DNA from: Escherichia phage vB-Eco-KMB39
Direction: 5' to 3' (one strand)
DNA: 64,000 bases
Sequence record: OR539219.1
Position numbers and translations under genes: made by a program. Below are positions 10,569 to 60,147 of this stretch, piece by piece (position 1 is the first letter of the stretch; every line of letters begins with the position of its first letter). The notes beneath the pieces are model-generated. The model saw nothing but the letters and a program-made list of their open reading frames with translations. It was not told the DNA's origin and did not search any database.

Positions 10569-11171
10569 TTATAGATTAAATCCTTCAAAATCAAGAGTAT
10601 AGATAGTGTATGTTGAATACTTTTTATACTCATATCTATCCGCAATTCTAAATACACTTCCAGCTGGTATCATTACTTCTTGTTCATCTGAAACTAATTC
10701 CATATTACGATAGCGATGGCTATCCGGAAACTTAAAACTTGGACTGTATTCTTTACAGCGTAGAGCTTTTATAGCATACTCCTGGAAATTAAATACCATA
10801 GGAGCTTTGAATTCAAAAATAACTTGTGTGTTGTATTCTAATCCAGAAGCAAAATGTAGAGCTATATTTTTATCATATGAAGCTGATACTACTTTATCAA
10901 ATGTAATAATATCAATTCCTTGATTTAACACTTGCTTAGTCTCAACTGGAACACCTCTCCAAAGAGGTTTATCGTTTGGTTCCAAACGAGATTTGATTAT
11001 TTCATTTAACCAAGAGTGGTCGTCTGGCTTATTAGTAATACAATGAATTAAAAGTTCAATTTCGGATAAATTAAATCCTTCAGAAAGTAATTCTTCACGA
11101 ATAGAAGCACGCACCGATGCATCCATTGATTTGATTTTAAAATCTTTTAATTGCATTGCTGAATATTTCAT
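10569..11171 (-). CDS. modA: ADP-ribosyltransferase ModA
   Basis: 200 aa equals T4 ModA; paralogue of adjacent ModB. Confidence 0.7.
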   Translation of the reverse strand: MKYSAMQLKDFKIKSMDASVRASIREELLSEGFNLSEIELLIHCITNKPDDHSWLNEIIKSRLEPNDKPLWRGVPVETKQVLNQGIDIITFDKVVSASYDKNIALHFASGLEYNTQVIFEFKAPMVFNFQEYAIKALRCKEYSPSFKFPDSHRYRNMELVSDEQEVMIPAGSVFRIADRYEYKKYSTYTIYTLDFEGFNL

Positions 11172-11803
11172 TCAACTACCTCAATATCATACACTTTAAA
11201 TGTTCCAAATGAATCGTGTAATTTTTCTTTTGAAATAGAAGTTATTTTATACTTTCCAATTGGAATCATCCATTCTTGTTCACGCACAATCATCATTAAG
11301 TTATCAGTACGTTCTGAATCTAATCCATCAGTATCTTCATATGTATACTTAAACTCAGTATTAGGAGAAGAAAGTATAATATCGCTGATATGGTCAGAGT
11401 AATTAAAAGCTTTATCAGTTTTTAAGCGAAGTACTATTTCAGTGAAATATTCAGCATAAGAAAAAGAACACGCTGTATGCAAACTAGTAGTAAATGAATC
11501 TACTCTGTTCGTTGAAAACACTTCTCCAACTTGTAAATCTTTAATGAGTTCTTTTGTCGATTTTGATATACCACGATATAGCTGATAAGGCGATTTAGTT
11601 AAATGCTTTTTAATGATTTTATTCAACTGCCGATGAAGAGCTTCATTCTTTTTGGCTTCCATACATTGCCAAAGAACTGACTGTTCAAAGTCAGTAAATT
11701 TTTCACAGACCTTTTTATACATATCATATTGAAAATCAACGCTTTCAGCTTTTATAGATAACTGTTCAACATCTGCAAGATTAATAATCATGATAGCCTC
11801 CAT
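11168..11803 (-). CDS. modB: ADP-ribosyltransferase ModB
   Basis: 211 aa; YRG...STN ART-like motifs; early promoter upstream. Confidence 0.7.
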   Translation of the reverse strand: MEAIMIINLADVEQLSIKAESVDFQYDMYKKVCEKFTDFEQSVLWQCMEAKKNEALHRQLNKIIKKHLTKSPYQLYRGISKSTKELIKDLQVGEVFSTNRVDSFTTSLHTACSFSYAEYFTEIVLRLKTDKAFNYSDHISDIILSSPNTEFKYTYEDTDGLDSERTDNLMMIVREQEWMIPIGKYKITSISKEKLHDSFGTFKVYDIEVVE

Positions 11804-16293: not shown

Positions 16294-16920
16294 TTAACCT
16301 CTATTCATAAAAGCATTAAAAATTTGGTCATCAATAGAAACTTTTACTTTAAACTGTTTTTCCGATGGTAATTCATATCCGCATATTACAATTTTGTGAT
16401 CAATATCAAAATACACAGAAGCAATATGATTAATGGTGTTTTCAGTAAAGTCTAAATCAACATCAATATCTTTTTGACCACAACCCAAAGGATAAATAAT
16501 GCGAGTAATTCGATTATCTTTAACAAAGATTCCACCAATATACTCTGTGCTGCGTTTAAAGTCTACGCGCCGCCGAAATGAAAAATATTCAGGCTCTTTA
16601 TGAGCTCGGCTCATAGGACACAACGAGTAACTAGAGTAAGAGATGTCAAATCCTACGCCTTCGATATGAGCCAAAGTGTCACGATTAAACCAATTATAAT
16701 CGTACGCCAAGTCCATTAGATTATAATATGTAAAAGGCACCGGATTAACATCACTAGTCACAAGCACGTAATTAGCAACTGCTATAATTTCATTATTTTT
16801 AACAAATACAAATCTTGATTGATGCGAATGACCTGGACCTGCGTTTTCACGATTAATGATATAACACTGGGCACCTTTATATTTGTACGTGTCTTTGCAC
16901 TTGTGCATTTGATAGAGCAT
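16294..16920 (-). CDS. hypothetical protein (61.2 position)
   Basis: 208 aa ORF. Confidence 0.45.
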   Translation of the reverse strand: MLYQMHKCKDTYKYKGAQCYIINRENAGPGHSHQSRFVFVKNNEIIAVANYVLVTSDVNPVPFTYYNLMDLAYDYNWFNRDTLAHIEGVGFDISYSSYSLCPMSRAHKEPEYFSFRRRVDFKRSTEYIGGIFVKDNRITRIIYPLGCGQKDIDVDLDFTENTINHIASVYFDIDHKIVICGYELPSEKQFKVKVSIDDQIFNAFMNRG

Positions 16921-55751: not shown

Positions 55752-56333
55752 CTAACCGAGCTTTTTAGTTAATTCGTTCCAGTGTTTTCTACACAAAGAA
55801 ACATAAATTTCATCACCAATACAGATTTGATTACCTTCTTTAACTGGTGTTCCATCTTCCATTAATCGAGCTGTCATAATCGCTTTTTTGCCGCAATGAC
55901 AAACTGCCTTTAGTTCAATAAGTTTATCTGCAATCGCCAAAAGTTCTTTAGAACCTTCAAACAATTTTCCAGCGAAATCAGTCCTTAATCCATAAGCCAT
56001 AACAGGAACATTATATGTATCAACAATTCGGCTTAATTGGTGCACCTGTTCAGTTTTTAAAAACTGAGCTTCATCTACAAATACGCAATGAATATCTTTT
56101 TGTGCTTCAGCCCATTTATAGAACTCGAAAATATCCATATCATCTGTAATAATATTCGCTTCCTGCTTAATTCCAATGCGAGAAACAACTTCACAGACAG
56201 AATCGCGAGTATCAATAGCAGGCTTAAGAACTAATACACCCATTCCACGTTCTTTATAATTATGTGCAGCAGTCAAAAGAGAAGCAGATTTTCCAGCATT
56301 CATTGCTGCATAAGTAAAAATTAAACTCGCCAT
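55752..56333 (-). CDS. tk: thymidine kinase
   Basis: 193 aa equals T4 Tk; P-loop MNAGKSASL; zinc ligands CHCGK. Confidence 0.9.
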   Translation of the reverse strand: MASLIFTYAAMNAGKSASLLTAAHNYKERGMGVLVLKPAIDTRDSVCEVVSRIGIKQEANIITDDMDIFEFYKWAEAQKDIHCVFVDEAQFLKTEQVHQLSRIVDTYNVPVMAYGLRTDFAGKLFEGSKELLAIADKLIELKAVCHCGKKAIMTARLMEDGTPVKEGNQICIGDEIYVSLCRKHWNELTKKLG

Positions 56334-56342
56334 ATCACCTTC

Positions 56343-56528
56343 TTAAAGCGTATTCACATAAGCTATTAATTCATTTTCTTTCTTATCAAACCGATCAGCA
56401 AATTCTTCCTGCTGTTCGGGAGATAGCGGGCCGTATTCATCATAAAAGGTGTTTGCTTCTGTATGCTCATCTAGAAGTTCATGGATAAGCTCAAACAATT
56501 TATCTTTTTGTTCTTTACTCAGACTCAT
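56343..56528 (-). CDS. hypothetical protein
   Basis: 61 aa acidic ORF. Confidence 0.35.
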   Translation of the reverse strand: MSLSKEQKDKLFELIHELLDEHTEANTFYDEYGPLSPEQQEEFADRFDKKENELIAYVNTL

Positions 56529-56694
56529 ATATTAATTTCCAGGAGTTTTAAAATAATTCGCTTTTGCTTAAATATTTCCATAGTTAAATGATCAGTATCT
56601 TTTTGACCAATTCCAATGGCAAAACCTTTATTAGCAGCGAGTTCAATTAAATTATCAAGCTCACGTAACACTTCGTATTGTAACTCAAAACTAT

Positions 56695-56922
56695 TCATTT
56701 TGGTTTACCTTCTTTAACGAAATCTGGATAAGGATAAAATCCCGAATAAAATCCTTCACCTTTATGATTGATACATCCTTTATTAGAACAATAGCACCAA
56801 TAATCGAAATCACAAGTCATTTCATCGTTGCATAAAGCAAAAACAACCGGCCACTTACACTTTTCACAGTGGGCATTTTTAAGAATACTAGTTTGGCTCA
56901 TAACCATGTAACCTTTAAGCAA
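56695..56922 (-). CDS. hypothetical Cys-rich protein
   Basis: 75 aa; multiple Cys pairs. Confidence 0.35.
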   Translation of the reverse strand: MLKGYMVMSQTSILKNAHCEKCKWPVVFALCNDEMTCDFDYWCYCSNKGCINHKGEGFYSGFYPYPDFVKEGKPK

Positions 56923-57110
56923 TATTCTTCTACATGTTGTTTACGACCTTTCTTATCAATAAAGGTATATTCAACGAATGTTCCAATGTAGTCTTTATCT
57001 ACATCATGTGGACTATTAATTGGGCATTTAGTACGGCAAATGCGTTCCCATTGACGAATAATTACTGCTTTGTTTTTAGGATCAAACGGATGCGGGTAAT
57101 GCACTTTCAT
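56898..57110 (-). CDS. hypothetical protein
   Basis: 70 aa ORF. Confidence 0.35.
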   Translation of the reverse strand: MKVHYPHPFDPKNKAVIIRQWERICRTKCPINSPHDVDKDYIGTFVEYTFIDKKGRKQHVEEYCLKVTWL

Positions 57111-57561
57111 AATCCACCACTATTAAATCAATATCAGGAGTAAACATGTCGATTAATTTAGAAACCTTATCCCAATCGCCGCCAGCAATACCACAACCTA
57201 TGCGTGGAATGTAAATTACCGGTTTAAACAAAAGGGTTTCTGCCTGTAGATTTAATTCTATCATGCAGTTTACTAAAGCACCATAATCAAGATTAGGACC
57301 TGGTTCGTATTGCGTATACAGGTTATAGCATATACCAAATCCCGTAGGACTATGTTTAAAAACAATAGACATATCGCCTAATTTATCACGAGAACCGTAC
57401 TCAGTAGTGGTTTTATCTATTTCTAAAATTTTGGGATAGGCTCTTGCTAATTGACCCGCTACGCCTGAACCCATAGTATGAAAACAATTGCACCCGTGCG
57501 CAATAATATTACCTTGAAGAAATAGGGCGACAATATCGCCCTTGATATATTTTACAATCAT
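57082..57561 (-). CDS. macrodomain protein (ADP-ribose binding/processing fold)
   Basis: 159 aa; glycine-rich motif HGCNCFHTMGSGVAGQLARAYP typical of macro domains. Confidence 0.5.
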   Translation of the reverse strand: MIVKYIKGDIVALFLQGNIIAHGCNCFHTMGSGVAGQLARAYPKILEIDKTTTEYGSRDKLGDMSIVFKHSPTGFGICYNLYTQYEPGPNLDYGALVNCMIELNLQAETLLFKPVIYIPRIGCGIAGGDWDKVSKLIDMFTPDIDLIVVDYESALPASV

Positions 57562-57905
57562 CTAGTACTCAATCCTCGATTATAAGAATCTACTAAACGG
57601 TCAACCATTGAATGACAAGCGGCTTTATCTTTTTCCTCCGCAACTGAACATTCTAGGGTATTCCACTTTTTAGCATATCGTTTTAATAATGTATCGTTTT
57701 TGTATCTGCTTGATTTATCTCTTTCTCCGTCTTTATATGCATATATTAATTTCTGCGCAAATTCAGCTTGGCATGCTTTATTTTTCCCACAATAATCTGC
57801 CGCAGTGCGGTTCACATACTCCCTAATTTCAGTATATGATGTATCTGCTGACGCATAAGCAGAAAATGAAATTAATCCTATACATAAAACCAAAATTTTA
57901 GTCAT
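57558..57905 (-). CDS. vs: Vs protein (valyl-tRNA synthetase modifier)
   Basis: 115 aa equals T4 Vs; N-terminal signal peptide. Confidence 0.5.
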   Translation of the reverse strand: MTKILVLCIGLISFSAYASADTSYTEIREYVNRTAADYCGKNKACQAEFAQKLIYAYKDGERDKSSRYKNDTLLKRYAKKWNTLECSVAEEKDKAACHSMVDRLVDSYNRGLSTR

Positions 57906-59552: not shown

Positions 59553-59730
59553 CTAAACGAATAGGTTCATGAATGCCATATCCCTGAACAGAAATTTCTG
59601 TCGTAGGATAAATTCCATCAATATCACCCATATTCCAGGCTTCATTAAATTGCTGTTCGCCTGAATTACTAAACCACTCGGCGAAAGCATTTAGCACATC
59701 TTCAGAACCTTCAATAATTATCTTTGCCAT
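59509..59730 (-). CDS. hypothetical protein
   Basis: 73 aa acidic ORF. Confidence 0.4.
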   Translation of the reverse strand: MAKIIIEGSEDVLNAFAEWFSNSGEQQFNEAWNMGDIDGIYPTTEISVQGYGIHEPIRLVEYDLCTGEEVKYD

Positions 59731-60147
59731 TACAAACTCTCGGTGAAGGTACGAGCGATAACGTCGCGCTGCTGTTCCGGAGTCAGAGAGTTAAAGCGAA
59801 CTGCATAACCAGATACACGGATGGTCAGCTGCGGATATTTTTCCGGATGCTTAACTGCATCTTCCAGAGTTTCACGACGCAGAACGTTAACGTTCAGGTG
59901 TTGACCACCTTCAATTTTAACTAGTTTCACGACGCAGAACGTTAACGTTCAGGTGTTGACCACCTTCAATTTTAACTGTAGGTTGTGTTTCAATTTCAAT
60001 TTCACGGGCATGCAAACCGTAGAAAATTTCCGGGTCTACAAAAGAGTCCTCTTTAAAGGTTTTAGAGACAATAATTCGTGCTTGAATACCATCTTCAAAA
60101 TAAATAGTACCTTTATGTGTGCCTTCAAGAATTTGATATGCTTTCAT
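59730..60147 (-). pseudogene. autonomous glycyl-radical cofactor (GrcA/YfiD-like) gene split by a 55-bp tandem duplication
   Basis: track ORFs 59917-60147 and 59730-59930 both encode [18 protein letters not shown]; distal ORF ends [29 protein letters not shown]; joined frame restored by removing one repeat copy. Confidence 0.7.
59868..59977. repeat. perfect 55-bp tandem direct duplication (2 copies) inside the grcA-like gene
   Basis: unit agtttcacgacgcagaacgttaacgttcaggtgttgaccaccttcaattttaact seen twice back to back. Confidence 0.8.

Follow-up and report, generated by a model that had tools for sequence, protein, structure and literature searches.

We report that a single-domain macrodomain protein, encoded by a T4-like phage (Tequatrovirus) at the position of T4 tk.4 (adfM), is likely to act in counter-defence, where it would remove DarT2-made ADP-ribose from phage DNA in the manner of SCO6735. 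This reading, which we favor with reasonable though not full assurance, draws on sequence comparisons, a structural model and analogy with characterized proteins. The gene lies in a stretch of 64,000 nucleotides from Escherichia phage vB-Eco-KMB39 (OR539219.1), referred to below in its entirety as the window.

Parts of this picture are already known: public records include the macrodomain annotation, and a preprint has described a DarTG2 phenotype for the T4 orthologue. What is new here is that the gene occurs as two alleles with sharp recombination boundaries. Two further points, as judged from alignments and trees, are also new: Tk.4 and SCO6735 have a Gln-for-Lys active site in common, and the T4-type family appears to stand apart from both DarG and the AdfM of phage PhiKZ. 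No new kind of biology is opened, and the gene had largely been explained already. A recently identified phage counter-defence gene is now seen to have a second allele that is just as common, and the analysis suggests that the T4-type factor has a Gln active site and belongs to a clade other than that of the DarG antitoxin, which it supposedly mimics, and other than that of its PhiKZ namesake. These distinctions bear on naming, on the prediction of phages that escape DarTG2, and on the choice of residues to mutate.

Identification of the gene

The preliminary description had reported a protein of 159 aa, with the glycine-rich signature of macro domains, encoded in the tk-vs interval. The corresponding open reading frame was recovered unchanged at 57082..57561, on the minus strand and with an ATG start, and the motif, HGCNCFHTMGSGVAGQLARAYP, corresponds to residues 22-43 of the protein. 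The product scored 32 bits with the Pfam Macro profile (PF01661), for which the gathering cutoff is 22, and the match (E=1.3e-7) spanned positions 2-117 of the 118 in the profile. It also matched PHROG 335 with E=1.4e-71 and had 794 homologues at E<=1e-3. The window-type allele is under purifying selection, dN/dS being 0.04-0.23 among five such alleles, whose differences are mainly synonymous. Together with the overlap of the start codon with the upstream gene vs (ATGA), these observations establish 57082..57561 as a real, constrained gene, more than a chance reading frame.

Over the 3.25 kb surrounding the gene, identity is 99.8% to Escherichia phage vB-Eco-KMB42 and 95-99% to several hundred records of Tequatrovirus phages. 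All genes in this region are on the minus strand, in the order tk (55752-56333), four small open reading frames, the macrodomain gene, vs (57558-57905), vs.1 and regB. T4 has tk.4, with a product of 155 aa, in the slot between vs and tk.3, and the macrodomain gene is accordingly its positional orthologue. The search for a T4 orthologue, proposed initially, thus ended in a gene at the same position with 58% identity. The two share locus, orientation and family, and all 16 invariant residues are present in both proteins. They differ in length, the window protein having a 4-residue C-terminal extension that overlaps tk.3.

Fold and relationship to other macrodomains

An AlphaFold2 model of the protein (55-sequence alignment; pLDDT 94, pTM 0.89) shows the three-layer alpha/beta arrangement of macro folds, in which the ADP-ribose cleft is lined by two glycine-rich loops. 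When compared with the PDB by Foldseek, the top structures were TARG1, BT1257, Poa1p and DarG, and sequence searches concurred. The initial macro domain call is therefore borne out by the profile search above threshold, the confident model and the structural neighbors. The best Foldseek match was human TARG1/OARD1 (4j5s; E=5.5e-10, TM 0.72-0.83), which was also detected with the family profile at E=4.6e-17. Because its closest structural and sequence neighbors all belong there, the window protein is, to judge from sequence and model, a single-domain macrodomain of the TARG1/DarG/SCO6735 ('ALC1-like') class. This class removes thymidine-linked ADP-ribose from DNA (PMC9411070; PMC8501950), an activity described for TARG1 itself in the second of these reports.

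We placed the protein in a neighbor-joining tree (200 bootstraps, 12 Tk.4-family members sampled), which is small and distance-based and has weak deep branches. The Tk.4 family formed its own clade: the node uniting 11 of its 12 members, among them the window protein and T4 Tk.4, had 100% support, and the node adding the twelfth (P0095) had 38% only. The window protein paired with T4 Tk.4 (85.5%). PhiKZ gp104 fell inside the DarG group (100%), and SCO6735, BT1257 and ALC1 were grouped at 92% with the Tk.4 family outside. Bacteroides BT1257 (2afc/2fg1), like Streptomyces coelicolor SCO6735, accordingly stands in a clade separate from the Tk.4 family. Placement of the window protein inside the SCO6735/BT1257 clade was considered and given up, as the tree does not support it and the DNA-contact lysines are missing; only the statement that the protein works like SCO6735 was kept.

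DarG provided the best PADLOC and NCBIfam matches of the window protein, in both cases through the macro domain only. The NCBIfam DarG profile (NF048014) scored 27.6 bits against a cutoff of 250, with profile positions 2-138 of 338 covered, and the PADLOC profile was matched over positions 3-144 of 329. In DarG, the C-terminal domain binds DarT and the darT gene lies adjacent; the window protein has neither such a domain nor such a neighbor, its gene being flanked by vs and tk.3. The listed members of the Tk.4 family, at 95-199 aa, are too short for the second domain of DarG, and no DarT neighbor was found for the Pelagimonas homologue (P0094) at the one bacterial locus examined. A further difference concerns the catalytic lysine, which is present in DarG (FPTKK; structures 5m3i from M. 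tuberculosis and 5m31 from T. aquaticus) and in PhiKZ gp104 (FPTKD), and for which the window protein has Gln. Identity with DarG was rejected on these grounds, i.e., a score far below the cutoff, the absent catalytic Lys, the lack of a second domain and the lack of a darT neighbor. From the sequence comparisons we concluded that the T4-type protein is not simply an orphaned DarG.

PhiKZ gp104, which was independently named 'AdfM', removes DarT2-made ADP-ribose from DNA in vitro (Cell Reports 2026; PMC13309987). The published construct translates to FPTKDNW, i.e., it is of the lysine type. Our conclusion is that T4 Tk.4 and PhiKZ gp104, in spite of the shared name, appear to be separate recruitments from one macrodomain class.

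Active-site residues

For residue comparisons, the DarG and TARG1 sequences used were exact matches to the deposited PDB chains over the region compared, and those of SCO6735 and BT1257 were taken from PDB alignments. Conservation was assessed in 55 members of the Tk.4 family. All motifs are given with their minus-strand coordinates in the window.

Gly8 and Asp9 of an N-terminal KGD (57535..57540) align with the GD of DarG, SCO6735 and TARG1. At least 90% of family members have Gly8; Asp9 presumably contacts adenine, as in macrodomains generally. In HGCNC (residues 22-26, 57484..57498), H22, G23, N25 and C26 are invariant. In the alignments, His22 corresponds to Poa1p His23 and SCO6735 His24, and Asn25 to Asn27 of SCO6735, the residue that positions the Gln of the catalytic site. 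A metal site in the extended motif, HGCNCFH, was dropped as a candidate: H28 varies, and a beta strand carries the Cys and His residues. MGSGV (residues 30-34, 57460..57474), the first of the two glycine-rich loops of the ADP-ribose cleft, aligns with MGKG of DarG and WGKG of SCO6735; every family member has G33, and at least 90% have M30 and G31.

The second glycine-rich (diphosphate) loop, GCGIAGGDW (residues 122-130, 57172..57198), has G122, G124 and W130 invariant, and in the window allele it follows the family consensus. The loop of T4 AdfM (T4 record 2501-2968) is GAGIGKGNW, which is atypical, with Lys where at least 90% of the family has Gly.

The position of the catalytic lysine falls in NLYTQ (residues 80-84, 57310..57324), where Gln84 corresponds to DarG Lys80, TARG1 Lys84 and SCO6735 Gln85. 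Gln84 was placed on DarG Lys80 by hhalign, with the family profile against M. tuberculosis DarG. An hmmsearch alignment placed Gln84 on TARG1 Lys84 and Ala126 on TARG1 Asp125, so that the Lys84/Asp125 dyad of TARG1 reads Gln84/Ala126 in the window protein. A joint alignment confirmed both the Gln84/Lys and the Ala126/Asp125 placements. Gln84, like Asn25, is invariant in all 55 members. With the DarG/TARG1 catalytic lysine replaced by Gln84, chemistry of the DarG/TARG1 lysine type is unlikely in the window protein.

The Gln/Asn pair of SCO6735 (PDB 5e3b), Q85/N27, corresponds to Q84/N25 here. SCO6735 Q85A is inactive and N27S, which changes the Asn that positions Gln85, is nearly inactive; the wild-type enzyme cleaves thymidine-linked ADP-ribose off DNA and rescues E. 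coli from DarT (PMC9411070). The chemistry of the window protein is, by analogy, probably of the SCO6735 type: Gln84, held by Asn25, would position the distal ribose for water-mediated attack. As regards catalytic and binding residues, the preliminary macrodomain claim thus stood in part: the DarG/TARG1 lysine is absent, but the Gln found in its place is essential in SCO6735.

SCO6735 and the window protein also differ. SCO6735 Val25, a Val/Ile position, is Gly23 here, and the DNA-contact residue Lys34 is Ser32. The long basic mobile loop of SCO6735 (Lys89, Lys93) is replaced by a short acidic/neutral one, YEPGPNLDY, and the pI is 5.0, vs. 9.5 for SCO6735. The absence of K34 and K89, which hold DNA in SCO6735, and the acidic character of the protein are points against a role on DNA.

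Proposed role in counter-defence and alternative activities

Evidence for a function of this family comes from T4. In a November 2025 preprint, a T4 transposon library grown on DarTG2 hosts gave tk.4 as the single significant hit, and a clean tk.4 knock-out rendered T4 DarTG2-sensitive (10.1101/2025.11.20.689424). These findings are genetic. The name adfM, for anti-DarT factor Macrodomain, was given in the same preprint, whose authors proposed, from predicted structural similarity to M. tuberculosis DarG, that AdfM takes ADP-ribose off DNA thymidine; the passages covered describe no enzyme assay (10.1101/2025.11.20.689424). The adfM finding fits an earlier report in which T4 was still resistant to DarTG2 after loss of both adfA and adfN, so that another factor had to be assumed (PMC11825919). 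The suggestion in the preliminary description that the macrodomain might counter a host defence thus agrees with the published genetics of T4 tk.4 (10.1101/2025.11.20.689424).

In the proposed mechanism, host DarT2 would ADP-ribosylate thymidines in single-stranded phage DNA, and Tk.4 would bind the ADP-ribose in its glycine-lined cleft and hydrolyze the N-glycosidic bond to the base, freeing ADP-ribose and restoring replicable DNA. By analogy with T4 AdfM we infer that the 58%-identical window allele does the same job, and the window protein would, on the same reasoning, be catalytically active on DNA. Against this stand the difference from T4 AdfM at 42% of positions, the diphosphate loop included, and the missing DarG/TARG1 lysine.

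The window also contains, at 16294-16920 on the minus strand, an open reading frame of 208 aa that is 94% identical to T4 gp61.2, i.e., adfA (anti-DarT factor A; PMC11825919). It thus carries two anti-DarT-type genes; a third, adfN (gene 30.3), falls outside the window in T4 coordinates.

Macrodomains have other substrates, and we weighed these against removal of ADP-ribose from DNA. The protein might act on soluble ADP-ribose derivatives instead of DNA, as a Poa1p-like ADP-ribose-1''-phosphate phosphatase, an O-acetyl-ADP-ribose deacetylase, or a degrader of ADP-ribose-derived immune signals, which we consider unlikely. The 'phosphatase' annotations derive from this reading, but their names are products of homology transfer. 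The N-terminal half of the window protein resembles yeast Poa1p (6lfq), an ADP-ribose-1''-phosphate phosphatase, and an acidic surface (pI 5.0) would suit a small substrate; the C-terminal half aligns poorly. Of the residues probed in Poa1p, His23 falls on the conserved His22, Ser30 on Thr29, and Phe152, which has been studied by mutation, on Ala126. The substrate of Poa1p is a small molecule from tRNA splicing. We know of no counterpart to it in T4 infection and, to our knowledge, T4 RNA repair does not yield ADP-ribose-1''-phosphate, which we counted against a soluble substrate. In a comparative survey, soluble ADP-ribose derivatives were argued to be the substrates of most phage macrodomains (PMC9503650), yet the sole T4 tk.4 phenotype known is lost resistance to DarTG2, which modifies DNA (10.1101/2025.11.20.689424). 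ADP-ribosylated RNA, e.g., with uracil-linked marks, is very unlikely to be the main substrate. TARG1, DarG and SCO6735 do reverse uracil-linked ADP-ribose on single-stranded RNA (PMC13036486), and defences that ADP-ribosylate RNA exist, CmdTAC being one of them (PMC11618068). But CmdTAC strongly defends against T4, which carries tk.4, and it follows that Tk.4 does not neutralize the adenine-linked mRNA mark; neutralization of CmdTAC mRNA ADP-ribosylation was rejected for the T4 allele for this reason. A bacterial defence that modifies uracil was not found in the literature covered.

It had also been suggested that the macrodomain could reverse or read the marks of ADP-ribosyltransferases ModA and ModB encoded in the same window. 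Both genes are indeed there: a ModA-like open reading frame of 200 aa (10569-11171) and a ModB-like one of 211 aa (11168-11803), both on the minus strand and both matching phrog_832, 'RNA polymerase ADP-ribosylase'. The stop and start codons of the two overlap, and the closest GenBank record wrongly labels small open reading frames near them 'molybdenum ABC transporter ModA'. Reversal of protein ADP-ribosylation by Tk.4, whether of Alt, ModA and ModB marks as a timing switch or of marks left by host or competitor toxins, would be consistent with this shared presence and with the ability of SCO6735 and TARG1 to strip ADP-ribose from proteins as well (PMC9411070). The proposed connection to ModA and ModB was not upheld, however. 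Their genes lie 45 kb from tk.4, with no genomic linkage. Alt and ModA modify arginine, and we know of no macrodomain of the TARG1/DarG/SCO6735 class that removes arginine-linked ADP-ribose; the chemistry would be wrong for the class. The Lys84/Asp125 dyad with which TARG1 acts on Glu/Asp esters is absent (Gln84, Ala126). Moreover, in the T4 transposon screen, tk.4 had no phenotype and was dispensable without DarTG2 (10.1101/2025.11.20.689424). We set aside reversal of ModA/ModB marks as a main reading and retain a protein substrate as a quite improbable rival.

Finally, the protein might be a reader or sponge that binds ADP-ribose without cleaving it. It has no counterpart to the catalytic lysine found in DarG and TARG1, and the Gln-type macrodomain of ALC1, which acts as a binder and is not known to be a hydrolase, belongs to the same class. 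A mere binder nevertheless seems most improbable, given that SCO6735 hydrolyzes its substrate rapidly with this very Gln/Asn pair (PMC9411070), that Q84, N25 and H22 are all invariant, and that it is not obvious how stoichiometric binding could let modified DNA replicate again. Hydrolytic removal of DarT2-made ADP-ribose from phage DNA is the reading that we prefer.

Two alleles of tk.4

The window protein and T4 Tk.4 are 58% identical by BLASTP (155 aa, E=1e-70). DNA identity to T4 drops to 37-72% in a cassette at 57061..57500, while the flanks (regB, vs.1, vs and tk.3) are 95-100% identical to T4. These boundaries come from the identity of window and T4, computed in sliding steps after alignment with MAFFT. 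The first ~20 codons of the window gene are still T4-like, and the 42% of protein positions that differ are concentrated in the cassette, with the diphosphate loop included. Given 58% protein identity despite 95-100% identical flanks, the window tk.4 is, by these comparisons, best described as a second allele that was swapped in as a recombination cassette.

A chimeric tk.4 was observed in phage vB_EcoM_F1 (MT682712.1, 52-531): residues 15-19, AEGKN, are as in T4, and the remainder is of the window type. Its breakpoint differs from that in the window, so recombination breakpoints fall inside tk.4 as well.

Both alleles are common. About 290 phage records have the window-type core at 90% identity or more, and about 220 have the T4-type core at that level, with about 160 further records near 80% for the T4 type. 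Carriers of the window allele include vB-Eco-KMB42 and AugustSocin (99.4% identical protein).

A wider interpretation can be put forward as speculation that we regard as doubtful. The Tk.4 family may represent a third, Gln-type lineage of macrodomains that remove ADP-ribose from DNA, recruited by phages independently of the DarG-derived 'AdfM' of PhiKZ. Tequatroviruses might then keep two 58%-identical alleles by cassette recombination because these differ in specificity, i.e., in the DarT2 variants countered or the ADP-ribose linkages cleaved, and the loop difference between T4 (GIGKGNW) and the consensus (GIAGGDW) would be functional.

Expression and neighboring sequences

The gene would be expressed from a leftward early-region operon, regB-vs.1-vs-tk.4. 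A check of the translations showed that the vs stop and the tk.4 start overlap as ATGA at 57558..57561 (minus strand). At the vs/tk.4 junction (57505-57600, minus strand) two RNA hairpins are predicted (MFE -25.3 kcal/mol, z=-3.2). In the first, the end of vs pairs with the tk.4 Shine-Dalgarno sequence (GAGGA) and AUG. The second has an 8-bp GC-rich stem (57542-57524) and a U-rich tail, lies in tk.4 codons 7-13, and was also flagged as terminator-like by a scan. In view of the ATGA overlap and the predicted sequestration of Shine-Dalgarno sequence and AUG, translation of tk.4 is probably coupled to that of vs. The hairpins may enforce this coupling or attenuate expression.

At its other end, tk.4 overlaps the start of tk.3 (56898..57110) by 29 nt (57082..57110, minus strand), whereas the two genes share just 4 nt in T4. 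Collinearity with T4 is absent from the tk-tk.3 interval (56334-56897), whose DNA matches T4 weakly or not at all. Small open reading frames on the minus strand are found here at 56343-56528 (phrog_653), 56525-56698 (phrog_3452) and 56695-56922 (Cys-rich, phrog_2306); the T4 counterpart carries tk.1 and tk.2. Judged by this comparison, the interval appears to be another swapped cassette, adjoining the macrodomain gene.

Elsewhere in the window, a 15-nt hairpin-forming sequence, AGGTGTTGACCACCT and then TCAATTTTAA, is present twice, at 59896-59910 and 59951-59965, 55 nt apart. The overlapping open reading frames 59730-59930 and 59917-60147 both encode an identical 17-residue stretch. The repeats and the shared residues point to a local duplication.
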